From Candidatus Poribacteria bacterium (GTDB lineage: Bacteria; Poribacteria; WGA-4E; WGA-3G), in assembly GCA_965262955.1 (NCBI GenBank), contig CBDHGE010000001.1, positions 3,103,637 through 3,167,636 of the forward strand: a stretch of DNA of 64,000 nt, read 5' to 3'. The notes below the pieces were generated by a model. It saw only the letters and a program-made list of their open reading frames with translations. It did not search any database and was not told the DNA's origin. Shown here in pieces: positions 3,273 through 36,379 of the stretch; position 1 is the first letter of the stretch, and every line of letters begins with the position of its first letter. The position numbers were made by a program, and so were the translations under genes.

Positions 3273-4880
3273 TTAAGGGTTAACAACCCTAACGTCCTCT
3301 CCCTCTTTTAAAGAGTGTTGTCCAGCAGTGACGACGGCATCCCCTTCCATGAGTCCGCTGATAACTTCAGCCTGACTGCCTCGTAAAAGTCCTATCTCCA
3401 CGACACGCCGTCTGCTCACATTATCTTCGATGACGAAGACGTTTTGTGTTTTTGTATTGACATTCTCAATGAGTGAAGCACGCGGAATCAGAAGTGCGTC
3501 TGTATGTACTTTGATAGGAACGGTAACTTTCGCAAACATTCCTGGCTTCAGAGTGCCTTCGGGATTGTCAATGCGAACCTCGACAGTTGCTATTCGCCGA
3601 GACGCTTGTAGCGTCGGGCTGATGAAAGTGATTGTGCCTGACATCGGTGTATCTATGCCATCAATTTCTATTGTTGCCTGTTGGTTGAGTGCCAATTGGC
3701 TCAACTGCGTCTCGATGACATCAACGGTAGCTATGACACTATCAATATTGACAATTTCAAAAAGTGGTGCTGCTGGAAGTGCCATTCCACCTAAATCTAA
3801 ATAGCGTTTGGAGATAACACCCGAAATCGGAGCGTAAATCGTAGCATCTTTCAGACGTTTTTGGGCGAGTTTGAGAGCAACCTGCGCTTGTGTACGTGCT
3901 GTTTTTGCCGATGTGATCTCTGCTTCCCAACTTTTCGCAGTTTCTAAGGCTTCGGCGGCAGTGAGTCCTGCACGTGCTGTTTCGACTTGCGAACGGGCAA
4001 GTTCAATATCTTTTTCCCATGTTTTTGTAGCCGCTTGTGTCTCTGCCAATCGTAGAGACGCTTCTGCTTGTTCGACCTGTGCTTCCATCGCTTGAATGTC
4101 CTCGACGCGAGCACCATTATCAATAAGTTGCAGTTGCTCTGTAGCGATCTTATGCTGCGCTATTGCGATGTCTAACTGCGTCTTCGCACTTTCAAGGGAT
4201 TGCTGGCTGATCGCACCGTTTTGGAAGAGTTCGGTCATTCGATCGTGATTGCTTTTAGCATTGGCGAGGTTCGCATCGGCTTGGTTTAGACCGGCTTCTG
4301 CTTGTCTCCGATCTTCAGCACGGGCACCACTTTTAATTTTCTGCAGATTTGCGACAAGCGATTCTAATGCTGCTTGTGCTTGTTCTATTTGCGTGACCGT
4401 TCGGATTTCAGAAAGGTCTACTACCTGTTGTAGTCCTATCTCTGCGGCGTGAAGTTGTGACTTCGCTTGCGCAATTTGTGTATGGACTCGGACTTCCGCA
4501 AGCTGCTTTGCCTGAGAATAGGCTGTTTCTGCTGATTCCAGGATGGCTTCTGATTGTTGCACTGCGAGTTGTAGTTCCTCATACTCCACAGTGGCAAGAG
4601 GGGCGTCTTTCTCAACACGGGCACCTTCATCTACATTTAAAGTGATAATACGTCCAGCGATCTTGGGGTAAACGCTAACTTGTGATTCTGCTTGAATGGT
4701 ACCCGATAGTTGATGTTCTAAACGGATCTCACCCCGTTTTGCCTTTGTGACTTCTACCGGTTTAAGCACAATAGCTTCAGCTTGTTGGGGCGCGGGGCTT
4801 TCACGTTTCATAAATCTTGGCACGGCTAAAATCACTGCGATTATTAATAATATACCGATGCCAATCAGTACTTTCTTCAA
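3273..4880 (-). CDS. Efflux membrane-fusion protein (HlyD/RND periplasmic adaptor family)
   Basis: N-terminal TM anchor, about 300 aa of coiled-coil (repeated AQ/LE heptads), C-terminal beta-barrel/lipoyl-like region (GMFAKVTVPI...ALLIPRASLI). Start is TTG at 4880 with AAGGAG 10 nt upstream. Confidence 0.8.
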   Translation of the reverse strand: MKKVLIGIGILLIIAVILAVPRFMKRESPAPQQAEAIVLKPVEVTKAKRGEIRLEHQLSGTIQAESQVSVYPKIAGRIITLNVDEGARVEKDAPLATVEYEELQLAVQQSEAILESAETAYSQAKQLAEVRVHTQIAQAKSQLHAAEIGLQQVVDLSEIRTVTQIEQAQAALESLVANLQKIKSGARAEDRRQAEAGLNQADANLANAKSNHDRMTELFQNGAISQQSLESAKTQLDIAIAQHKIATEQLQLIDNGARVEDIQAMEAQVEQAEASLRLAETQAATKTWEKDIELARSQVETARAGLTAAEALETAKSWEAEITSAKTARTQAQVALKLAQKRLKDATIYAPISGVISKRYLDLGGMALPAAPLFEIVNIDSVIATVDVIETQLSQLALNQQATIEIDGIDTPMSGTITFISPTLQASRRIATVEVRIDNPEGTLKPGMFAKVTVPIKVHTDALLIPRASLIENVNTKTQNVFVIEDNVSRRRVVEIGLLRGSQAEVISGLMEGDAVVTAGQHSLKEGEDVRVVNP

Positions 4881-4958
4881 TTTGTCTCTCTCCTTTTATC
4901 GACGTTATGCGGAAATTATATCTGTTTTGTCCGAGGCAAGATTCCTGTATTCTATTTT

Positions 4959-6362
4959 CTATTGTAGACTTTGTCCTATCGCTTTTTCCAGTCTTACCAA
5001 ACCGACGACGTAATCATGATGTGCTTGAAGGCGATTAACTTCTGCTTGTGCGAGGGCGAGTTGTGTGTCAGTCAACGCAACGGTGGTAATAATACCGTTT
5101 TGAAATTGTAGGTTAGCGATACGGACACTTTCTCGTGCTTGTGCGATAGCCTCGCGCTGAACATCGATAAGGGTTTGTGCGCCAAGAAGGTTGAGATAGG
5201 CGGAGCGGACCTCAAATTCGACACCTACTTTGACTTGGTCGCCACCTAACTGGATCTGTTTTAGAGCAGATTCGGTCTGTTGCACGGCTGCGCTCGTTGC
5301 GAATCCATCAAAAATCGGGATGTTAATTTGAAAACCGACACTCCAGATCCTGTTCATTTCCGTAAGTCGTTCATTCTGTGAAATCTGATAATTTGAGAAC
5401 AGACCGAGGTCGGGAAGCCGTCGCGTTTTAGCAATGTCAATCTGTTTGTAAGCCGCTTGTTCACTAAATTGTGTGCGGCGTACCTCTGGGCGATTTTCGA
5501 GTGCTTGTTGTATTAATTTATCAAGATTTAACGCCGGCATTTGATGATTTTCTGGTATTGCGAGTGTGCCTTTTACTGTTACATCCTGTGCGAGTGGGAC
5601 GTTAAGCACTGTTTTATAGGCGTTTTTAGCGGTACGAACGCCATTTTCGGAGCGAATTAGCGTTGATTTAGCGTTTGCGAGTTGAACCTTTGCACGAAGG
5701 ACATCAAAGTTAGTCGCTGCACCTGCTTCAAGCGATACCTCCGCAATTGCAAGTTGTTCTTCAACGAGGGAAACGCTCTGCTGCGCTACTCTAACGAACT
5801 CTTGTGCGACCAAAGCACCGTAGAAGGCTTCGGATACGTCTAAGCGGAGTTGATTATAGGCAGCATCGACATCGCGTTGTGTAGCCTGATAGTTGAGTTG
5901 TGCGGCTTGGTAGCCATAATAATAACGTCCCCAGGCAAAGATCGGCTGTGTTAAATTAACTGTGCCTTGGGCGTTGTGATGTGCACCAAATTCCAATTCA
6001 ATCAGGTCGGCTTCGTTATCCGCACTGGGCGGTTGCATCCCATTCATTGCTTCGCCCGGCATTGGAAATCCGAATCCGCCATCGGCTCGAATTACTGATT
6101 TTTGGATGTCCTTAAAATAGGTGTAATTGCCGCTTGCTGCAACCCGTGGTAAGAGTCCCCCGAGTGCTGCACGAACTTGTGCTTCGGCGGCTTTAAGGTT
6201 TTGTTCGGCGGTCTGAACGGTCAGATTGTTCTGTTTGGCAATTTCAATGCTCTCTTCTAACGTCAAAACCTTCGGTTCTTGCGCCATAGCAGAGAGGTGT
6301 ATTAGGAGTAATAATAAGGTTCCACCAACACAGATGAAGTGGCGGAACCGTAGTGGGTGCAT
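4959..6362 (-). CDS. Outer-membrane efflux protein (TolC-like OMF)
   Basis: Signal peptide then LTLEESIEIAKQNNLTVQTAEQNLKAAEAQV... Two tandem TolC repeats (QLRLDVSEAFY..., LGGDQVKVGVEFEVRSAYLNLL). Start moved to ATG at 6362 (GGAGG upstream). The ORF track's longer 6461 start lacks a signal peptide. Confidence 0.8.
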   Translation of the reverse strand: MHPLRFRHFICVGGTLLLLLIHLSAMAQEPKVLTLEESIEIAKQNNLTVQTAEQNLKAAEAQVRAALGGLLPRVAASGNYTYFKDIQKSVIRADGGFGFPMPGEAMNGMQPPSADNEADLIELEFGAHHNAQGTVNLTQPIFAWGRYYYGYQAAQLNYQATQRDVDAAYNQLRLDVSEAFYGALVAQEFVRVAQQSVSLVEEQLAIAEVSLEAGAATNFDVLRAKVQLANAKSTLIRSENGVRTAKNAYKTVLNVPLAQDVTVKGTLAIPENHQMPALNLDKLIQQALENRPEVRRTQFSEQAAYKQIDIAKTRRLPDLGLFSNYQISQNERLTEMNRIWSVGFQINIPIFDGFATSAAVQQTESALKQIQLGGDQVKVGVEFEVRSAYLNLLGAQTLIDVQREAIAQARESVRIANLQFQNGIITTVALTDTQLALAQAEVNRLQAHHDYVVGLVRLEKAIGQSLQ

Positions 6363-13639: not shown

Positions 13640-14281
13640 TTACAGTTCTTTTAGTTCTGCGAGAATATGATCAGGACCGGTGCGAGTTCCAAACGTATCC
13701 AGGAATTTTGATACGACACGCCCTTCCTGATTGATAATGTAGGTTGCTGGACGTGCTATATCCGTGTCGCTCGGGTCAACGACATTGTAGGCAGCGATTA
13801 CCACCATGTCTGTATCTACGAGTAAGGGGTACGTAAGTTCAAGCGTCTTTTGTGTTGAGTCAACAACCGTCAGAGGATCGGCACTCATGGCGATCAGTGC
13901 AGCACCTTCCGCTTGAATGTCTGCATAACCAGTTTGCAACTCACCGAGTTGCAGACGACAGTTGCCTCACGTGCCTGTACGGTAGAAGACAATGACCAGT
14001 TTTTGTCCCTTGTACTGCGAAAGATTGTGGGTATTTCCCTTGCTATCTGGTAGGGAAAAATCAGGTGCAAGTGCCCCAATATCTAATCCCTCGCCCGGAG
14101 GGAGTTGTTCAGCTGCCTCCTCTGGTAATGTTATGAGATCTGTTGTTCGTTCGGCGTTGTCGCAAGCAAGACATAAGAAAATGAGAGCACTTAATAGAAA
14201 TGAGAAGCCTATTAAATTAGCCTTGTGCGAAAACAGCGATTTCAAGTTTGCCAGGTAATCGTCCATCAGTTTGAGTTCCAT
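13640..14281 (-). CDS. Selenocysteine-containing AhpC/TSA-redoxin (peroxiredoxin/thiol-disulfide oxidoreductase-like) lipoprotein. In-frame UGA (13967..13969) read as Sec.
   Basis: ORF-track fragments 13967..14281 and 13640..13939 are in the same frame. Own translation across the TGA: ...APDFSLPDSKGNTHNLSQYKGQKLVIVFYRTGT-U-GNCRLQLGELQTGYADIQAEGAALIAMSADP..., i.e. a redoxin fold with U-x-x-C in place of CxxC. N-terminal lipobox FLCLAC. SECIS-like hairpin follows the UGA. An alternative start at M6 (14266) gives an ATGA overlap with the sulfatase stop. Confidence 0.7.
13935..13953 (-). promoter_or_regulatory. Candidate bacterial SECIS hairpin for the Sec-redoxin (UGCAACUC-GGU-GAGUUGCA: 8-bp stem, G-rich apical loop, 14 nt 3' of UGA)
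   Basis: Perfect inverted repeat tgcaactcaccgagttgca on the + strand. Position and loop composition match bacterial SECIS expectations. Confidence 0.5.
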
Positions 14282-19560: not shown

Positions 19561-20960
19561 TGTAGGTTCTGCTATACTCTTTAGACCAGTTGGCAGACAT
19601 ATCGAGCGTTGTCGCAAGGCAACGTGTCTGCCTACCCACTCGATAGGGGTTAACGGCTGGTAACTGGTACATCTTGAGAACCTACACATACAAAGTTCAG
19701 CACCATAAACGCAACCGTCATTTGCGTTCGGATACGCGTATCATCTCGCAAGTGCATAATCACTTCATAGCGTTGACGCGTCGGCACTACCGGATTTACG
19801 GATGCTGCGCAGGCTATAAGCGTGCGACCTATAACCGATTGAGTCGGCACTTGACGAAGTTGAAGAAACTCGAAAGATATGCTCACTGGCGTATCCCATA
19901 TGCTTGGGCGTTGCAAGAGTGCTTGAAACGTATTGAGTTGGGGTATCTCAACTTCTTTGAGAAGCGTGCCAAGCGTCCGCCGAAGTTCAAGTCGTGGCGA
20001 AACTACCGCTCTATGACCTTCAACGGCAATCAGGTCAAGGTTGAAACCGTATTTGAGAAGGAACGCCACAAGAGACGTGTGCCCGTTGCGAAAATACGCC
20101 TTGCTGGACGGTGGTATCGGTTCTGGTATTCTCGTGAGATAAAAGGTAATATCAAACGTATAACCGCCAAACGTGACGCACTCGGTGATTGGTATATCAG
20201 TATCACAACAGATTATGAAGGACTTACCCCCGAACCCAAGACGGGTGATGCTGCAGGGTTCGACTATGGCAACAAGACCTTTCTGACCTGTTCGGATGGC
20301 ACGAAATACGAATCGCCTGAGTTCTATAAGCAGTCTGCCAAGAAGGTAAAACAAGCCAATCGGGAGTTGTCTCGTAAGGTTAGAGGTAGCAACAATCGCA
20401 AACGTGCGAACAAGCACTATGCCCGAACCCATCGCAAGATTCAGAGACAGCGCGAAGATCACCACTGGAAACTTGCTTTGGAACTTGTCGGCAAGTTTGA
20501 CCTCTGTTTCTTTGAGGACTTGAACCTTGACGGCATGAAACGACTTTGGGGACGCAAGGTCTCTGACCTCGCCTTTGGTGAGTTCCTTGAGAAAATCCGA
20601 TGGCAAGCGAAAAAACGGGGAAAGCGCGTTGAGACGATAGGACGTTGGGAGGCGACAACGCCAGTTTGCCACAACTGCGGGCAAAAGCACCTCTTCATAG
20701 ATTTGAGTGTTCGCGATTGGTTCTGCCATAGTTGTAAAATCCATCATGACCGCGACATAAATGCGGCGATAAATATCCTCAAGGTTGGGGCATCAACCTT
20801 TGGAGGAGAGGGTATCAGACTTGCGATCGCAAGCAACCCTTGTTGATACCAGAATCCACCCGAAACGGGGGACACTTAGAATCCCCCGAATTCATTCGGG
20901 GGAGTATGTCAAGAAGAATTCGCAGCTGTATGCCCTATCAGAGCAGGCGGGCTATCGGCG
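19561..20960 (+). mobile_element. IS200/IS605-family, TnpB-only (IS1341-like) insertion element: structured left end, tnpB, and 3' hairpin-rich right end (probable omega/reRNA scaffold)
   Basis: Nested inverted repeats at 19563..19685 (GTAGGTTCT...AGAACCTAC, GACCAGTTGG...AACTGGTAC, GGCAGACA...TGTCTGCC). tnpB at 19674..20846. Downstream hairpins cccgaaacggggg and cccccgaattcattcggggg at 20855..20915. Exact boundaries not determinable from one copy. Confidence 0.6.
19674..20846 (+). CDS. tnpB: TnpB (IS605 OrfB) RuvC-like RNA-guided nuclease
   Basis: N-terminus MRTYTYKVQHHKRNRHL (TnpB-typical), RuvC blocks, C-terminal zinc finger CHNCGQKHLFIDLSVRDWFCHSCKIHHDRDINAAINI. Confidence 0.9.
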   Translation: MRTYTYKVQHHKRNRHLRSDTRIISQVHNHFIALTRRHYRIYGCCAGYKRATYNRLSRHLTKLKKLERYAHWRIPYAWALQECLKRIELGYLNFFEKRAKRPPKFKSWRNYRSMTFNGNQVKVETVFEKERHKRRVPVAKIRLAGRWYRFWYSREIKGNIKRITAKRDALGDWYISITTDYEGLTPEPKTGDAAGFDYGNKTFLTCSDGTKYESPEFYKQSAKKVKQANRELSRKVRGSNNRKRANKHYARTHRKIQRQREDHHWKLALELVGKFDLCFFEDLNLDGMKRLWGRKVSDLAFGEFLEKIRWQAKKRGKRVETIGRWEATTPVCHNCGQKHLFIDLSVRDWFCHSCKIHHDRDINAAINILKVGASTFGGEGIRLAIASNPC

Positions 20961-21074
20961 TCGATGAATTTATATATCAGACGCGTAATTTGGCATTTGT
21001 GAAAAAAAATGTTGCGAAAAAAAAGCATATCCGTTAAAATATTATAGACAACTAATTATTCAAGGAGGTTACCC

Positions 21075-21470
21075 ATGCATATCGCGAGATTATCGCTCAT
21101 TTGCCTTGTTGCCCTTGTATTCATGGTAGGGTGTGGTATGCTCGGAGAGAAAGCAGAGATGTCCGAGACTGCAGCCACTTCTGATTCCGCGGGAAAAACC
21201 GTAATGGAATCTGAAGCCAAAGACATGGCGAAATCCATGGAAAAAGCCGCCGTTGAAGAGATTACACTGAATGTCACAGGCATGACATGAGGCGCGTGTA
21301 CCAGTAAAGTGCAGGATGCACTTAGCAAGGTCACAGGCGTTTCCGAAGTGGTGAGCGTCTCTTCAGATACCAATACGGCTGTTGTGAAGGTTGAGAAGGG
21401 TAAAGTTACCACTGATGCCCTTACCGAAGCAGTTTCAGGTGCTGGTTTTAGTGCCGAAGCCGCTCAATAA
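21075..21470 (+). CDS. Selenocysteine-containing heavy-metal-associated (HMA; CopZ/MerP-like) lipoprotein, copy 1. UGA at 21288..21290 read as Sec.
   Basis: ORF track stops at TGA after ...EEITLNVTGMT. Continuing in frame gives U-GACTSKVQDALSKVTGVSEVVSVSSDTNTAVVKVEKGKVTTDALTEAVSGAGFSAEAAQ* (TAA 21468..21470), i.e. the HMA G-M-T-C-x-x-C site with U as first ligand. Lipobox FMVGCG. AAGGAGG RBS. SECIS-like hairpin 16 nt 3' of the UGA. Confidence 0.7.
21307..21323 (+). promoter_or_regulatory. Candidate SECIS hairpin for HMA-Sec copy 1 (AAGUGCA-GGA-UGCACUU)
   Basis: 7-bp perfect stem with GGA apical loop, read directly. Confidence 0.5.
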
Positions 21471-21482
21471 GGCTTAATAGGA

Positions 21483-21509
21483 GGGTGGGTTTACCCACCC
21501 TTTCTTTCT
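21483..21509 (+). terminator. Rho-independent terminator after HMA-Sec copy 1 (GGGTGGG-tta-CCCACCC + TTTCTTTCT)
   Basis: GC-rich hairpin followed by a T-rich tract. Confidence 0.6.
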
Positions 21510-21584
21510 ATATAACAAGTTGCAAGCCCCAATATAAGAGTCCGCGATCTTCAGGTCGCTACTACAAATAAGAGGTATAAACGC

Positions 21585-21944
21585 ATGCGTCACTTAAACG
21601 TGAGGGTAGTATTTGTCTGCCTTGCGGCACTTCTACTTGTGATTGCGTGTGCAGACACGCAAAAGAAGACAACTGAAGCACCAAGCCAAACGGCAGAAAC
21701 ACCAAGTCAAACGGCAGAGGTCGCCGTTGAGGAAGTGACACTCGCCGTGACTGGCATGACATGAGGTGCGTGTACCAGCAAAGTGCAGGATGCACTCACA
21801 CAGGTTACCGGTGTCTCTGAGGTTGTCAGTGTTTCTATGGAAGAGAATAAGGCTGTCGTAAAGATTGAGAAGGGCAAGGTTGAAAAAGACGCGCTCGTGA
21901 AGGCGGTTACAGACGTCGGATTTAGCGCACAAGTTGCCAACTAA
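21585..21944 (+). CDS. Selenocysteine-containing HMA (CopZ/MerP-like) lipoprotein, copy 2. UGA at 21762..21764 read as Sec.
   Basis: ATG 21585 (AAGAGG RBS): MRHLNVRVVFVCLAALLLVIACADTQKK...EEVTLAVTGMT-U-GACTSKVQDALTQVTGVSEVVSVSMEENKAVVKIEKGKVEKDALVKAVTDVGFSAQVAN* (TAA 21942..21944). Not in the ORF track at all. Same UGA position and same downstream hairpin (AGUGCA-GGA-UGCACU, 21782..21796) as copy 1. Confidence 0.7.
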
Positions 21945-21957
21945 GCTTGAGTCCGCA

Positions 21958-21984
21958 GGGCGAGGTTGACTCGCCCTTTTTTCT
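21958..21984 (+). terminator. Rho-independent terminator after HMA-Sec copy 2 (GGGCGAG-gttga-CTCGCCC + TTTTTTCT)
   Basis: Canonical hairpin plus T-run. Confidence 0.7.
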
Positions 21985-22074
21985 ATTATACAAACGAATT
22001 CATAATGATAATGCGAGGTCCCTGCACCTCGCATTTTTATTGTCTACAAGAATTTAGAGATTGTGGTGTTCAAC

Positions 22075-22983
22075 CTACTGCTTCTTCGCGTAAAGCGGGT
22101 CGTCAAGCAGAGATTGCACTTCGTAGATTGAACCTTTTAGTTCTGCGTAAGGTTCCGGCATACGAACAGGTGCAGCGACCATACGTGGCTCATTCGTCGA
22201 TTCGCCACGGATGATGCAGTTGTTGAAAGTCTCCCAATCTGGAATGCCTTTTAGGGGCCAGGCATCTACCGCACAGTACTGGGCAAGCATTAATCGGCGC
22301 GGTTTGCTGGAGGTGTTCGGGGCAGAACCGTGCAACGCTCGGACATGATGGATCGTGATCCCACCCGCCTTCAACTCAACAGGGACAGCACCTTCTGGTG
22401 TGAAATTGGGATCTGTTACTGCACCAATAAACGCTCCGTTCTGATGGTGATCTAAAGTCGGTCCCTTGTGGGAGCCAGGAAGTATCATCAATGCACCGTT
22501 TTCCACGGTCATATCATCAATCACCACACCGACTGCGAGTAAATCGTCGTTAGTGTGCGGGTAGAATGCCCAGTCCTGATGCCATTCAACAGGACTCCCA
22601 AACTCCGGATACTTCATGTTCAATTTATGTCCATTATACCGAACCCCCGGTCCAATGAGCTGCTCCACAATGTCCAAGATTCTGGGATGTCGTAAAGCGT
22701 AATCGTAAACGACGTGGTGTAGTCCCGGATTTTTGATGCGTCGGACGCGTGGATTAGCAGGAGAATGCCCTGGCTCGAGATCAAAGATGTCAGTATGTTC
22801 CGTAACTTCTCTCGATTTTTCGACAAATTCATTGGTGACGCGTTGGAGATCCGCGACCTCTTCTGCTGTTAGGACTGCCTCAACGCCGAGATAACCGTTT
22901 TCACCATAAAAGTCAAGTTGTTCTTGCGTGAGCATTGGTTCGTCAACTCCTCTTAGCGAAATGATACTGTTATTATACGTCAA
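22075..22983 (-). CDS. PhyH-family Fe(II)/2OG dioxygenase
   Basis: WHQDWAFYPHTNDD...ALMILPGSHKGP...ITIHHVRALHGSAPN. Confidence 0.85.
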   Translation of the reverse strand: MTYNNSIISLRGVDEPMLTQEQLDFYGENGYLGVEAVLTAEEVADLQRVTNEFVEKSREVTEHTDIFDLEPGHSPANPRVRRIKNPGLHHVVYDYALRHPRILDIVEQLIGPGVRYNGHKLNMKYPEFGSPVEWHQDWAFYPHTNDDLLAVGVVIDDMTVENGALMILPGSHKGPTLDHHQNGAFIGAVTDPNFTPEGAVPVELKAGGITIHHVRALHGSAPNTSSKPRRLMLAQYCAVDAWPLKGIPDWETFNNCIIRGESTNEPRMVAAPVRMPEPYAELKGSIYEVQSLLDDPLYAKKQ

Positions 22984-28374: not shown

Positions 28375-29028
28375 TTAAACAGCACGCTCAATCGACCAAT
28401 GACGGTCAGTGCTCTGGACGACCTCTGCTCCCGGCATATCCATCTGCGTCAGCATCTCATTAACTTCAGTAATGGTAAACGCCGCAAGGAAAGAATCATA
28501 ATACAACTTCTGTTGATAAGGAGTATCATCCGCAGCATACAGATCCACAAAGGCTTGGGCATCTGCTGGCGTTTCAGGACGGATAAGATCGCGGATAAGC
28601 ACAACACCTTCGGAACGAGCAACTCTGCCCATCTCTTTGAGTGCGCTCATCGCATCGTGGATATGGTGGACGATGCTATTAGAAATGAGTCCGTCGAAGG
28701 TATTGTCGGGGTAGGGTAAAGTTTTGGCATCAACGAGTTCAAGAGTGATCCGATCAGTAAGACCGGCGTCTGCGACGTGACGTTTCGCTATTTTTAGCAT
28801 TTCCTCGGACAGGTCGATGGCGGTAATGTGGATGTTCGGACAGCGTTGCGCGAGAAGAAGAGGGATTTGTGCGGGACCGGTGCCGACATCAAGAAAATGT
28901 CCAGTGTTCGCACCCAGTGCGACAACGCGATCGACAAAAGCGCGGTCAACCTCGCCATGCTCCATCGCATCGTAGGCTTCGGCGGCTTCCGCTGTATCCA
29001 TAACTTCGGGTTCTACAATTCGATTCAT
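28375..29028 (-). CDS. Class I SAM-dependent methyltransferase
   Basis: LDVGTGPAQIPLLLAQR (motif I), ...DGLISNSIVHH (motif II/III). Confidence 0.75.
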   Translation of the reverse strand: MNRIVEPEVMDTAEAAEAYDAMEHGEVDRAFVDRVVALGANTGHFLDVGTGPAQIPLLLAQRCPNIHITAIDLSEEMLKIAKRHVADAGLTDRITLELVDAKTLPYPDNTFDGLISNSIVHHIHDAMSALKEMGRVARSEGVVLIRDLIRPETPADAQAFVDLYAADDTPYQQKLYYDSFLAAFTITEVNEMLTQMDMPGAEVVQSTDRHWSIERAV

Positions 29029-29812
29029 GCTCTACTTTCCTAATAAGTTCAGAAACAGTTAGCGCGTTCTGACGGATCTGATCCGGTTGAAATCGTGTAT
29101 ACATGCCAACCGCCATAGCGTCCGTCGGTTTGATATTTTCAAGGGCGAGTTGAAAGGCTTCACGAGGCTCGTTTCTACCAGCCGCTAATACCTTTATAGC
29201 AATGATCGGCATCGGTATTGCTTGTATCGCTGCAAATGCTGCATAGCGATCGTTTGGCAGATACAACTCTCTATGTGTTGTGTGATTATACAACGCACAG
29301 ACATAAAAGTCAACATCGTATCCTTCGGAATAACAGTACTTGAGGATCTGAGGATCGTGCGTGCCGAGTCCAACCGCACAGCCGAGATCGCGGATGTATT
29401 TCAGACTTTCGCGCAATGAATCGAGGCGTCCTTCGGCATACAATTTATCGGTCGTACCACCGTGATGGTAAATAGCAATCGGTTTATAGCGCGCAATAAT
29501 CCCTAAATATTCATTGAGATCTGCGTATTCTGTATCTTTAGGGGTCTGCGCAATCCACTGAATTGTGCCGCCCGCGTTCCAGTATTCGTTGAGAGTTCGC
29601 ATAATATGTCTATCGGCGCGAGCGAGGACAGTGTTAATTCCATTCTTCTCTGCCTGACGGAGATCCATCATAATTTGGATCGTCGTATAGTAATCTTCCA
29701 TAGCTTTCGATGCTTCTGGAGAGCGATGCGAGATGCCACTATACGGATTACCGCCGATAATGAGTCGCGTGACACGATGTGATGCGATGGAAATTGTAGG
29801 TATTTTAATCAT
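28946..29812 (-). CDS. Conserved hypothetical protein, family X copy A (paralog of 56153..56989)
   Basis: Shares blocks with 56153..56989: LIIGGNPYSGISH / LVIGDNPIYGYSH, GINTV / GINGW, GGTIQW / GGTINW, GLGTHDPQIL / GLSVHDPKLL, DVDFYVCALYN / DIDYYMTGLYN, KVLAAGR. No family confidently recognised. The 3' end overlaps the methyltransferase start by about 80 nt. Confidence 0.5.
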   Translation of the reverse strand: MIKIPTISIASHRVTRLIIGGNPYSGISHRSPEASKAMEDYYTTIQIMMDLRQAEKNGINTVLARADRHIMRTLNEYWNAGGTIQWIAQTPKDTEYADLNEYLGIIARYKPIAIYHHGGTTDKLYAEGRLDSLRESLKYIRDLGCAVGLGTHDPQILKYCYSEGYDVDFYVCALYNHTTHRELYLPNDRYAAFAAIQAIPMPIIAIKVLAAGRNEPREAFQLALENIKPTDAMAVGMYTRFQPDQIRQNALTVSELIRKVEHESNCRTRSYGYSGSRRSLRCDGAWRG

Positions 29813-33871: not shown

Positions 33872-36379
33872 TTAATGCGGAATCCCCAATTGGTGCATCC
33901 GACGGTGAATTGCTTCTCGTGCTTCTTGGAACGGACGAGAGAGGAATTCCAAGTGATCATCCTCACCGTGATGGTGCGTCACAGTCCCGTGTTCGTGGTG
34001 GCGTGCCGTTTGCTGGATATAGGACAGCCCACCCTCAATCAGAGTCAACATGTAGTTTGCCGTTTCTGGATCGAACATCCACCACTCACCGCCGACAGCA
34101 ATATAGACGGGTGAGGTGTGGGCAATAATGCCCCGTCCCCAGCCATCGTGATGTGGAATGGCTTCCGCATAGTTAGGTCCGCCACATCGCGCAGCAATCC
34201 AAGAGTGCTTATCCACCTTCAGGTTGGCTTTCAGGCGTAAATGCGATTTACCCTCTTTGTCCTCAGTGGAAGCAACCACCTGTCCTGCCTGAATAATCTG
34301 CAGCGTATGGATCGGGAAAATGGAATCCGCAGAGGCTTCCACCTCGACAGTGCCGCCATTACCGGGAAGGTTGATCGTGCTACCAATCGGTTGCCCGTCA
34401 ACGGTGAGACCGATCATGGGACCGCCACTCAGGAAAGTGTTACCAGCACTCATGTATTTACACCAGTTATCGTAATTGAATTCCTCATCATCGGGAATGT
34501 GGACGTATGTGCGATAAACGCCTACTGGTACATCACTACTCATCTTATCTGTCCCACCCACGAGAGGCAATTTATAGCCACAGTTAAGATAACGGTAATA
34601 CTCAATATGTCCATACATGGCATTGGTAAGATACTCAACGGCATCTACCCGTCCAGTGGCAATCAGTGTCGCTGGTTCGCAGTTCGGATTCGGAATATGC
34701 GGTAAGACAACAGTCCCACCTTGTGCATGACAGGCATCTGCCCAGTGGGAGAGTGTGACCTCCATATTTCCACCGAGTTCGGCTTCTCCAGGTCCATCAG
34801 AACACCACGGCGCGACCTGTTCCTTTAAACCGAGAAGTGTAAGATGACCGAGGAGATGCTGACGGTTCTCTTGGGTCGCATAGACGATGCTTCGTCCGTC
34901 GGCGGATGTCGTGGGTCTACCGATGAACTCCTCTGTATTCGTGAAGAGATGCCCCCACTGTGAAAGAAGAAGATTCACGACGCCGAGGTCTTCACCTTGT
35001 GCTTCAGTGTGTGCACCTTGTGTAGACAAGAAATGGACGTGCGTATCGCCGCTGAAATAACGTTCAGCGTTCATATCACACCACCGTTTTATCCGCAGCG
35101 TCAACTCGCGTTGCCCGGGTTTTATATTCACGGTCGTCCGTAGTGGTGTGTATTCAAAGCCGCGGGCAACATCAACAATAACATCCCCGCGAGGCAGCCA
35201 TCCTTGACACGTGCCGTCAATATAGGCATAACTAATCTGTCCGAGTCGTACATCACCACCGACATCTATGTGCCATGTGCCGTTGTTTGAGTTGACGTGA
35301 GCGTGATGTCCGTGTGGCGCGTACGGCACACCGTGCGGGGAACGGAAATGGATACGACACGGCACGGGTTTGCCTGTATCTTCATCAATCACTGTGGTAT
35401 GCACCCAGTTCCTGCCAGAGTCGATGACCTCCACCTTGACGCGTTCGTTGGGTTGAACACTTCCCTTTTCTTGGACTTCACCCCAGTTGACGCTGCCGAG
35501 GGTTTCACCGTGGTTCTTGACTTCAACAGTAGCCGATGGAGTAGCAGATACCTCAGTGTACGCAGGGCTACTCTTGTCGTTTTGGGATTCACCCCAGCCT
35601 TTGAAATCGTCGTTAATAAAGGCATCGGGAGCATTTTCCGGCAACGGATAAGGGTAGGTTGCTGAGCCACGGTCAACGTTGACTTCTATGTCAAAAGGTT
35701 TATCAGCATCATCAGATTGAGGAAGCGTGATTTTGACTTCCCGACGAGGACGACGCGGTATCGGACTTTCGTCGAGGTAACCAAGCGTGATTGCTGCAAC
35801 AATAAATCGTCGTTCCTGTGGTTGAATCTCAATTGATGCTATTTCAACGCCATCCCTCGGATTTTTCCACACCCACAAATAGTAGTCGCGCGGCGTCCCT
35901 TGGGTTGCCTCAGTTTGTCGGTTACCCGCTGAACCCCATGCCCCTTCATGCCGAGGTAATAAACCTTCTTGTCGGTCAGGTATGGCGAGGAATGTCTGTT
36001 GTCCCCATCCTTGCGGAACGCCGCCAATCTCAAAGCGTTCACGAATCGGCACACTGACCGTTTCACCGTCAGTGTAATGGAATACATAATTGGCGATTAA
36101 TCTGGCTATCGGTTCGCCTTCAGGTATGCGCGACTCAAGCAAGCGATGTACAAAGATAACTCGCTTTGGGTCTTCGTTGACAGAAACTTGGATGGAATCG
36201 CTATTAACCCCTTCGCCGAAGCCCAAAAAACAGGATGCACCTTCAGCGATTTCAAAAGGAAGCCCGTGGAACGTCTGTGACCCAACACTCGGCGTTGCGT
36301 CCGCACCGATAACTTCTGGACCGACATTACACAAACCAGAAAGTGAAATAGGTTGGTAGTCTCGCATAATAAACCTCAA
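33872..36379 (-). CDS. Large (835 aa) hypothetical protein with His-rich putative metal-dependent hydrolase region
   Basis: ERYFSGDTHVHFLSTQGAHTE (HxH), PHGVPYAPHGHHAHVN, C-terminal HHEHGTVTHHHGEDDH. Possibly PHP/CehA-McbA-like. No signal peptide. Function not established. Confidence 0.45.
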   Translation of the reverse strand: MRFIMRDYQPISLSGLCNVGPEVIGADATPSVGSQTFHGLPFEIAEGASCFLGFGEGVNSDSIQVSVNEDPKRVIFVHRLLESRIPEGEPIARLIANYVFHYTDGETVSVPIRERFEIGGVPQGWGQQTFLAIPDRQEGLLPRHEGAWGSAGNRQTEATQGTPRDYYLWVWKNPRDGVEIASIEIQPQERRFIVAAITLGYLDESPIPRRPRREVKITLPQSDDADKPFDIEVNVDRGSATYPYPLPENAPDAFINDDFKGWGESQNDKSSPAYTEVSATPSATVEVKNHGETLGSVNWGEVQEKGSVQPNERVKVEVIDSGRNWVHTTVIDEDTGKPVPCRIHFRSPHGVPYAPHGHHAHVNSNNGTWHIDVGGDVRLGQISYAYIDGTCQGWLPRGDVIVDVARGFEYTPLRTTVNIKPGQRELTLRIKRWCDMNAERYFSGDTHVHFLSTQGAHTEAQGEDLGVVNLLLSQWGHLFTNTEEFIGRPTTSADGRSIVYATQENRQHLLGHLTLLGLKEQVAPWCSDGPGEAELGGNMEVTLSHWADACHAQGGTVVLPHIPNPNCEPATLIATGRVDAVEYLTNAMYGHIEYYRYLNCGYKLPLVGGTDKMSSDVPVGVYRTYVHIPDDEEFNYDNWCKYMSAGNTFLSGGPMIGLTVDGQPIGSTINLPGNGGTVEVEASADSIFPIHTLQIIQAGQVVASTEDKEGKSHLRLKANLKVDKHSWIAARCGGPNYAEAIPHHDGWGRGIIAHTSPVYIAVGGEWWMFDPETANYMLTLIEGGLSYIQQTARHHEHGTVTHHHGEDDHLEFLSRPFQEAREAIHRRMHQLGIPH

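Follow-up and report, generated by a model that had tools for sequence, protein, structure and literature searches.

Within a 64-kb window of a Candidatus Poribacteria genome (contig CBDHGE010000001.1, positions 3,103,637 to 3,167,636; the window is the whole stretch of 64,000 nucleotides that was analysed, and coordinates below are counted from its first letter), two tandem genes are interrupted by an in-frame TGA at the same codon of a heavy-metal-associated (HMA) domain. We consider it quite likely that they encode paralogous, separately transcribed HMA lipoproteins containing selenocysteine (Sec, U), in which the UGA is recoded with the help of a hairpin and the products bind soft metals outside the membrane. 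That the pair contains Sec is very likely, since the TGA, the frame behind it and the hairpin are conserved throughout the relatives that we found.

Gene 1 (21075..21470 including the TAA stop, + strand) starts at ATG 21075, with an AGGAGG ribosome-binding site (RBS; 21063..21068, + strand) read from the sequence 6 nt upstream, and carries a TGA at 21288-21290 right behind ...LNVTGMT. Past this TGA the frame reads GACTSKVQDA... (GACTSKVQDALSKVTGV...GFSAEAAQ) up to TAA 21468-21470, giving a product of 131 residues. It is composed of a lipoprotein signal peptide (MHIARLSLICLVALVFMVG|C; 21075..21134) with lipobox Cys20, predicted from sequence only, a Met/Glu-rich linker with 5 Met among 41 residues (21135..21257), and an HMA domain formed by residues 64-125 (21264..21449), as placed by Pfam and by alignment to PDB structures. 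The TGA would encode Sec72 at the first Cys of the GMT-C-xx-C motif, where PDB HMA domains have Cys, and the partner Cys75 is encoded by 21297-21299. Gene 2 (21585..21944 including the TAA stop, + strand) has the same layout in 119 residues: an AAGAGG RBS (21570..21575, read from the sequence) 9 nt 5' of ATG 21585, a predicted lipoprotein signal peptide (MRHLNVRVVFVCLAALLLVIA|C; 21585..21650) with lipobox Cys22, a linker rich in Thr, Gln, Ala, Glu and Pro that has low confidence in the structural model (21651..21731), and an HMA domain of residues 52-113 (21738..21923) identified by Pfam, the model and structural matches. Its TGA, predicted to encode Sec60, lies at 21762-21764 behind ...LAVTGMT, the partner Cys63 is encoded by 21771-21773, and the frame ends at TAA 21942-21944. 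This layout agrees in every detail with the first-pass annotation, a reading of the letters made before our analysis, which had described the TGA behind LNVTGMT or LAVTGMT, the in-frame HMA domain, the RBSs and the lipoprotein signals, and had noticed that gene 2 was missing from the list of open reading frames (ORFs); its 5' part is an ORF of 59 aa, slightly below the default 60-aa listing limit.

Each gene has its own candidate intrinsic terminator, as that annotation had also proposed. The terminator-like hairpin of gene 1 (21480..21503, + strand) has a 10-bp stem followed by a T-rich tail, and that of gene 2 (21957..21977, + strand) an 8-bp stem followed by TTTTTT; both sit behind the TAA stops, not behind the TGAs. 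A sigma-70-like promoter candidate before gene 1 (TTGCGA-17-TAAAAT; 21012..21040, + strand) was found by consensus match only, at 9 of 12 positions, which is not above shuffle expectation.

Both genes belong to the HMA superfamily. Their read-through products match the Pfam HMA domain (PF00403) over its full length with 44.3 bits for gene 1 and 37.8 bits for gene 2 (cutoff, 24.8). It runs across the UGA, takes in profile positions 1-61 of 62 and survives with 35.9 bits when X is put in place of the UGA residue. The metal motif is G-M-T-[UGA]-G-A-C, in which the second Cys is retained and the UGA aligns with the first ligand Cys of the matched PDB domains (ATP7B, CopA, MerP, NmerA and CopZ). 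The AlphaFold model of a gene-2-type ortholog (P0002) shows a beta-alpha-beta-beta-alpha-beta domain with strands at residues 47-55, 76-83, 88-94 and 113-116 and helices at 63-71 and 100-109 (pLDDT, the per-residue confidence of the model, 85-91), places the UGA residue within the beta1-alpha1 loop, and leaves the N-terminal region before the HMA domain disordered with low pLDDT. The top Foldseek matches of this model are MerP, ATP7B and CopZ with TM-scores of 0.85-0.90, the best being MerP (1osd, 0.90, with 37% identity).

Relatives were sought in a scan of one genome per species, and full-length ones were confined to Candidatus Poribacteria, where 23 other genomes, several of them complete chromosomes, each carry both genes in tandem; together with the window, these give a set of 48 genes (24 genomes with two genes each). 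Complete Poribacteria chromosomes with the pair include OY282374.1, OX638316.1 and OZ246958.1. The metal-site codon is TGA in 48 of the 48 genes and never TAA, TAG or a Cys codon, which does not amount to 48 independent events, as these genomes are rather closely related. Past the TGA, the reading frame continues without further stops or frameshifts and substitutions are overwhelmingly synonymous, with a ratio of nonsynonymous to synonymous substitution rates (dN/dS) of 0.16 in gene 1 and 0.07 in gene 2 and proportions of synonymous (pS) and nonsynonymous (pN) differences of ~0.38 and 0.04-0.08, respectively. Therefore, the sequence behind the "stop" is translated. Homologs that truly terminate after GMT, which the first-pass annotation had named as evidence that would speak against Sec, were found in none of the 46 orthologs from the 23 genomes; all 46 keep the TGA and the downstream frame.

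In public protein databases, the orthologs either break off at GMT or appear as "full-length" proteins with GMTWGAC at the site. NCBI calls these entries "hypothetical protein" or "cation transporter", and none is annotated as a selenoprotein. The GMTWGAC matches were considered as Cys orthologs and rejected, as gene callers had rendered the TGA as Trp (code 4, short contigs). Among close orthologs, no Cys was found at the UGA site. Cys-aligned homologs, for which a search had been suggested, do exist further off: GMTCGACTS occurs in Actinomycetota ATPases and a Bdellovibrionales protein, the PDB proteins MerP and ATP7B have Cys at the aligned position, and GMVCDAC is found in the multi-domain relatives described below. 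Two database orthologs deviate at the motif. P0012 (NCBI J4G07_20195) is without exactly the ten residues TGMT-U-GACTS (...EEVTLAV-KVQDAL...), and in P0019 NRNDVKHDC replaces NVTGMT-U-xxC; a deletion, a frameshift or an attempt of the annotation to get round the stop codon could be the cause.

Both UGAs are followed by the same hairpin. Its 15 nt, AGTGCAGGATGCACT, are identical in gene 1 (21308-21322, + strand) and gene 2 (21782-21796, + strand) and begin 17 nt past each TGA, in line with the 16-17 nt given by the first-pass annotation. Folding and invariant codons mark A-GUGCA-GGA-UGCAC-U as the predicted apical hairpin of a selenocysteine insertion sequence (SECIS) in both genes, and in gene 1 the criteria of the bacterial SECIS (bSECIS) model do so as well. 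This model requires a loop of 3-9 nt with G at loop position 1 or 2, a stem of 4-16 bp, a UGA-to-loop distance of 16-37 nt and a minimum free energy (MFE) of -7.5 kcal/mol or lower (PMC13188914). With a 3-nt GGA loop, a stem of 6-7 bp and a loop start at UGA+23 nt, the geometry fits in both genes, and gene 1 passes the energy threshold with -10.2 kcal/mol.

Synonymous sites around the UGA are frozen. Across the 48 genes the invariant bases form (A/G)GUGCA-GG[A/C]-UGCAC(U), and synonymous variation is zero at codons +7 to +10 (GTG CAG GAT GCA) and at codons +3/+4 (TGT ACC); the codon entropy of other Val, Thr and Gly codons in the same genes is 0.9-1.9 bits. Degenerate codons are invariant at 6 of 11 positions near the UGA versus 1 of 24 elsewhere (Fisher p = 0.0017). 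A comparison of the two paralogs in the window gave the same pattern, with differing synonymous codons at 4 of 14 positions around the UGA versus 22 of 31 farther on (p = 0.0096). Where Asp is changed to Ala or Gly, the third base U is kept, therefore the A-U pair is preserved.

A natural control for the hairpin is provided by a poly-HMA gene of a sister lineage. On contigs L036-L040, a secreted poly-HMA protein is encoded by a divergently transcribed gene between the HMA pair and a GIY-YIG gene (L036, 5389..6390; L037, 1773..2774; L038, 1773..2993; L039, ~4830..5396; L040, 4401..5390). It has one Sec-type domain in L039, three in L036, L037 and L040 and four in L038, and always ends with one C-terminal Cys-type domain (GMVCDAC). 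The peptide VQ[D/E]AL is common to all of these domains. All Sec-type domains keep the hairpin GTGCAGGATGCAC, whereas the Cys-type domain reads GTA CAG GAT (GAG in L039) and the fold is lost (0.0 vs -3.9 kcal/mol). The frozen synonymous sites and this Cys-domain control argue that the hairpin is functional. Gene callers split the poly-HMA gene into ORFs of 47-54, 66, 66, (66) and 129-131 aa. The L038 gene with four Sec-type domains contains two repeat units of identical sequence and could result from misassembly. A 2026 catalogue gives 2-3 Sec per protein as the prokaryotic maximum; the predicted three-Sec form would equal this maximum and the four-Sec form, provided that it is real, would exceed it. 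In L036, a third lipoprotein gene behind the pair (~3779..4273, - strand) is HMA-like with a degenerate motif, GMPRFTSTF, that has neither Cys nor Sec, and it possibly encodes a non-metal-binding paralog.

The hairpin resembles the E. coli fdhF SECIS, whose sequence, GGTTGCA-GGTC-TGCACC, was checked in 5,419 E. coli genomes. The two elements have in common the four closing pairs (UGCA/UGCA), a loop that starts with GG and a position inside the coding sequence 3' of the UGA. They differ in that the fdhF element has a GGUC loop located at UGA+18 nt and a bulged U, whereas the Poribacteria hairpin has a GGA or GGC loop at UGA+23 nt, no bulge and a lower stem that is not conserved.

Several observations weigh against the hairpin as a SECIS and against Sec insertion. 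The apical hairpin shared by the genes is weak by itself (-5.5 to -6.7 kcal/mol), and in gene 2 it thus falls short of -7.5 kcal/mol without the poorly conserved lower stem, so the bSECIS check proposed by the first-pass annotation came out positive for the geometry of both genes and the energy of gene 1 and negative for the energy of the gene 2 hairpin alone. The extended structure is significantly stable only in gene 1 (z = -4.3; gene 2, z = +0.18). Hairpins with a comparable GGN triloop follow ~1% of random TGAs in the window, and the loose bSECIS model is passed by ~9%, so that only its conservation across genomes makes the hairpin convincing. These genomes are moderately close relatives, with neighbouring proteins 85-95% identical, and the hairpin is invariant, hence covariation is absent. 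Rfam gave no match to the hairpin and no other credible family, either at gathering thresholds over the window or at a permissive E-value over 21000-22050, a result that we did not weigh against a SECIS because Rfam covers bacterial SECIS elements poorly. A competing hairpin, UGUACC-AG(U/C)AA-(A/G)GUGCA (21297..21313 and 21771..21787), draws on the same GUGCA bases and is the structure of lowest free energy in many orthologs. Lastly, selA, selB, selC and selD are absent from the 64-kb window as judged by ARAGORN and Pfam scans.

Two structures were rejected as parts of the element. The long lower stem of gene 1, which extends the hairpin to ~21289-21344, is missing from gene 2 and from KLTGVTE-type orthologs. 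The UGUACC/GGUGCA hairpin has its loop at UGA+12 nt, closer than the 16-nt minimum, and its stem at UGA+6 nt, where it would be covered by the ribosome. This hairpin may account for the invariance of TGT ACC, and it could act as a switch or merely reflect the lower part of the element.

We also considered whether Sec decoding is plausible in this genome and phylum. TGA is the stop codon of 8 of the 28 Pfam-supported ORFs in the window, therefore it is not reassigned in this genome. ARAGORN found no tRNA and no tRNA-Sec in the 64-kb window. COGs for SelA, SelB and SelD have been listed for all three Poribacteria genomes of one study, bin44, bin70 and WGA-3G (Slaby et al. 2017, PMC5649159 Table S4), and Sec-type hydrogenases from Poribacteria were reported in a 2026 study (PMC13582414). 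The window itself holds a second selenoprotein candidate ~7 kb from the HMA pair, a lipoprotein-like AhpC/TSA protein (peroxiredoxin or thiol-disulfide oxidoreductase; 14281..13640, - strand) identified from its Pfam match, UGA and hairpin. Its in-frame TGA (13969-13967, - strand) lies in FYRTGT-U-GNC, a UxxC motif, and the PF00578 match (1.9e-29) extends across the UGA. An 8-bp hairpin, UGCAACUC-GGU-GAGUUGCA, places its loop at UGA+21 nt. The ORF track splits this gene or does not list it, and its UGA and hairpin are conserved in L040. GGN-triloop hairpins at 21-23 nt in two unrelated genes are what one SelB would require.

Given this evidence, other explanations of the in-frame TGA can be weighed. 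Translation might simply end there, giving lipopeptides of 71 and 59 aa, with the HMA-like rest as a remnant or as 53-aa ORFs starting from GTG 21309 and GTG 21783. Standard gene callers do give the truncated calls and the GTG-initiated ORFs exist, but neither fragment is a foldable HMA domain alone and the Pfam match spans the TGA. Moreover, GACTSK, which lies between the TGA and the GTG, is conserved in frame, dN/dS of 0.07-0.16 with pS of 0.38 holds over the entire downstream part, the internal GTG has no RBS, and the TGA is never exchanged for TAA or TAG, with terminators only behind the TAA stops. We regard termination as highly improbable and side with the earlier proposal of Sec rather than termination, on the strength of the universal TGA, the low dN/dS and the frozen hairpin sites. 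The genes could also be decaying pseudogenes of Cys-HMA lipoproteins, or the TGAs sequencing or assembly errors, a reading favoured by the in-frame stop codon itself and nothing more. It is effectively refuted by the identical TGA across independent assemblies from several sources, which include complete long-read chromosomes as well as short-read contigs, by the lack of further stops or frameshifts, and by strongly purifying selection. A different residue might be inserted instead: Cys by a SelB-dependent tRNA of the tRNA(ReC) type, or Trp, Cys or Arg by hairpin-stimulated near-cognate suppression. The sequence alone cannot tell which amino acid enters at the UGA, Sec machinery was not seen within the window, and tRNA(ReC) variants have been discussed for bacteria with SECIS-bearing genes (PMC13582414). 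Against this, the UGA replaces the first metal-ligand Cys, a known place of Cys/Sec exchange in HMA domains, and SelA, SelB and SelD are reported in Poribacteria (PMC5649159). Insertion of Cys would be simpler by TGT or TGC, yet neither is used in any of 59 Sec-type domains, and the hairpin has decayed in the one domain that does use TGT. Trp or Arg would wreck the metal site. Insertion of a residue other than Sec is accordingly very unlikely in our judgement.

The remaining alternative accepts genuine selenoproteins and lets the U-x-x-C serve redox chemistry, as an oxidoreductase or a scavenger of peroxide or other oxidants, or selenium handling, and not metal binding. Several facts speak for it and count against a metal role: no motif is commoner than UxxC among the redox selenoproteins in catalogues, the pair stands without a linked metal transporter, reductase or regulator in all 24 genomes, the other selenoprotein candidate nearby belongs to the AhpC/TSA family of redox enzymes, and the case for a metal function of the pair is one of homology alone. 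On the other hand, the HMA domain is canonical with a complete G-M-T-x-x-x-C loop, and the nearest matches in sequence and structure (MerP, ATP7B, CopA, CopZ and NmerA) all bind metal. The Met-rich linker of gene 1 is like that of periplasmic Cu(I)/Ag(I) proteins, and every known Sec-HMA family carries an annotation for metal binding or metal transport. We therefore think a redox or selenium-handling function unlikely and, judging from the homology of the domain, a metal-binding function likely for the pair.

Under the preferred reading, Sec-HMA lipoproteins that bind soft metals, the UGA at the first Cys of G-M-T-C-x-x-C would be recoded to Sec by SelB and tRNA-Sec, which would be recruited by the hairpin (A/G)GUGCA-GGN-UGCAC with its GG-initiated triloop at UGA+23 nt. 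In both proteins, a positively charged n-region is followed by a hydrophobic core and a lipobox (FMVG|C for gene 1 and VIA|C for gene 2), a lipobox of the pattern [LVIFM][AVIGSTF][GAS]C is present in 48 of 48 genes, and no transmembrane domain other than the signal peptide was found in either protein. From these signals we infer lipidation and an extracytoplasmic location. The mature proteins would each consist of a lipid anchor outside the cytoplasmic membrane, a flexible tether and one HMA domain, in which a selenolate/thiolate pair would hold a soft metal such as Cu+, Hg2+, Ag+ or Cd2+, and both might act as periplasmic metal scavengers or chaperones. In HMA chaperones, the loop Cys, whose position is taken by Sec here, is the exposed ligand that starts metal capture and transfer. 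At neutral pH a selenolate is in the deprotonated form; it is also the softer ligand and better resists irreversible over-oxidation, which would be of use in an oxidising periplasm. The linkers of the paralogs differ in composition. That of gene 1 is Met-rich in all orthologs but one (4-12 Met per ~40 residues, with M-x-x-M and M-M patterns), and Met is absent from the gene-2 linker in every ortholog. Segments rich in Met are a usual feature of periplasmic Cu(I)/Ag(I) proteins. We favour copper as the metal because of this feature of gene 1, where the Met-rich segment might serve as an additional arm to capture Cu(I) or Ag(I); conceivable alternatives are Hg(II), Ag(I) and Cd(II).

Selenoproteins with HMA-type domains are not new. 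The Global Ocean Sampling (GOS) study described a "putative mercuric reductase / MerP" selenoprotein and a UxxC cation-transporting ATPase (PMC2398784), reviews of 2022 and 2026 list ATPase (UxxC) and UxxU "metal-binding protein" selenoproteins, and NCBIfam holds two Sec-HMA families, NF041115 (UxxU_metal_bind) and NF045683 (a MerT/CopZ fusion-like selenoprotein). The view of the first-pass annotation that such proteins had been noted only sporadically in marine metagenomes is thus too narrow: NF041115, NF045683 and the copper ATPase with UxxC are better documented than that. Our literature searches on Sec-containing HMA/CopZ-type lipoproteins and on Poribacteria selenoproteins returned only general catalogues and one hydrogenase paper.

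Comparison with the individual families separates the pair from each of them. Like MerP (TIGR02052; PDB 1osd and 1afi), the proteins are predicted to be exported, with a single HMA domain and a GMTCxxC-type site (TM-score 0.90, 37-40% identity), but they reach only 49.3 and 47.7 bits against the MerP cutoff of 92.55. MerP has a cleaved soluble signal and a Cys ligand, whereas the pair has a lipoprotein signal, a long linker and a predicted Sec as first ligand, and the operon partners merT, merA and merR are near the pair in none of the 24 genomes. CopZ/Atx1 proteins (NF047957, NF033795 and NF033794) have the HMA fold and the motif in common with the pair and give the top NCBIfam matches (56.8 and 62.5 bits), yet the pair scores 46-62 bits with CopZ models whose cutoffs are 85-95. 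CopZ is cytosolic, ~70 residues long and devoid of a signal peptide, in contrast to the signal peptide, lipobox, linker of ~25-40 residues and predicted Sec ligand of the pair, and its partners copA and copY are not adjacent. The CopZ/MerP-like label of the first-pass annotation is therefore apt as a description of resemblance and does not extend to family membership, given the scores below cutoff and the lack of mer or cop context. NF041115, which corresponds to the GOS MerP selenoprotein (PMC2398784; PMC13188914) and is found mostly in marine metagenomes, is likewise a small HMA-type family with Sec in place of a metal-site Cys. It differs by its UxxU motif with two Sec, as opposed to UxxC, and by a 74-residue model without signal or linker, and the pair scores 48.4 and 58.3 bits against its 95-bit cutoff. 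The UxxC motif is shared with the cation-transporting P-type ATPase selenoprotein (ABB15669.1). The CopZ-like part of NF045683 (profile positions ~147-230) matches the pair with ~43 bits (cutoff, 375). In the ATPase family, the UxxC presumably lies within the N-terminal HMA domain, which would amount to the same chemistry as in the pair; both this ATPase and NF045683 have HMA fused to a membrane transporter, unlike the stand-alone lipoproteins described here. Because the scores are under the cutoffs and the motif, architecture and gene context differ, the pair falls outside these named families. Sequence comparison thus indicates a new lipoprotein-anchored UxxC subfamily, outside the named equivalog families, of a Sec-HMA kind that is already catalogued. 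The pair would function as a Sec counterpart of MerP or CopZ.

The surroundings of the pair are the same throughout the genomes: genes for a LamG-like protein, a GIY-YIG protein, HMA gene 1 and HMA gene 2 are followed by convergent PhyH and then by glycosyltransferase and phosphoribosyl pyrophosphate synthetase. In the window, a TnpB/IS605 OrfB-type gene (19674..20846, + strand), which has OrfB_IS605 and Cas12f1-like TNB domains, is inserted between GIY-YIG and HMA gene 1. TnpB is at this position in none of the 23 other genomes, and a distant TnpB relative was found in L003 only, elsewhere in the locus. A third terminator-like hairpin between gene 2 and PhyH (22010..22035; 10-bp stem AATGCGAGG...CCTCGCATT followed by a T-rich stretch) is probably the (bidirectional) terminator of PhyH, whose gene ends at 22075. 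Pfam scans of 30 large window ORFs revealed no mer or cop genes and no P-type ATPase; the only efflux genes of the window, HlyD/CusB-like and OEP, are ~15 kb off and unlinked to the pair. Elsewhere, the window has a GC content of 47% and carries many paralogs typical of Poribacteria, namely PhyH dioxygenases, LamG/concanavalin-like proteins and GFO/IDH/MocA oxidoreductases, together with one sulfatase. Two long ORFs on the - strand (33872..36379, 835 aa, and 28946..29812, 288 aa) match nothing in Pfam at E <= 1e-5.

Recognition of these genes mends an annotation error that extends across the candidate phylum, as the public entries that we saw are cut at GMT, split, mistranslated with Trp or named "hypothetical" or "cation transporter". 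Specialists in selenoproteins may find such proteins unsurprising, yet they make a clean, phylum-wide and unannotated case with a built-in Sec/Cys control. A domain of ~70 residues with a natural Sec/Cys pair and an fdhF-like SECIS would be a handy model for the effect of a selenolate on Cu(I)/Hg(II) affinity, exchange kinetics and oxidation resistance. If the predictions above are correct, the pair joins the few selenoproteins whose Sec binds metal and does not act as a redox catalyst. More tentatively, and with the odds somewhat against it, Poribacteria might possess a lineage-wide extracytoplasmic selenium-based module for soft metals that present annotation misses, made up of the two Sec-HMA lipoproteins, one of which has a Met-rich arm of the Cu(I) type, and, in the sister lineage, of the poly-HMA protein with three (possibly four) Sec, in which Sec would have been selected to keep the site competent for metal in an oxidising periplasm or sponge mesohyl and to bind Cu(I) or Hg(II) more tightly and with faster exchange than a dithiolate. 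The pair would point to selenium-dependent metal handling by these abundant sponge symbionts.

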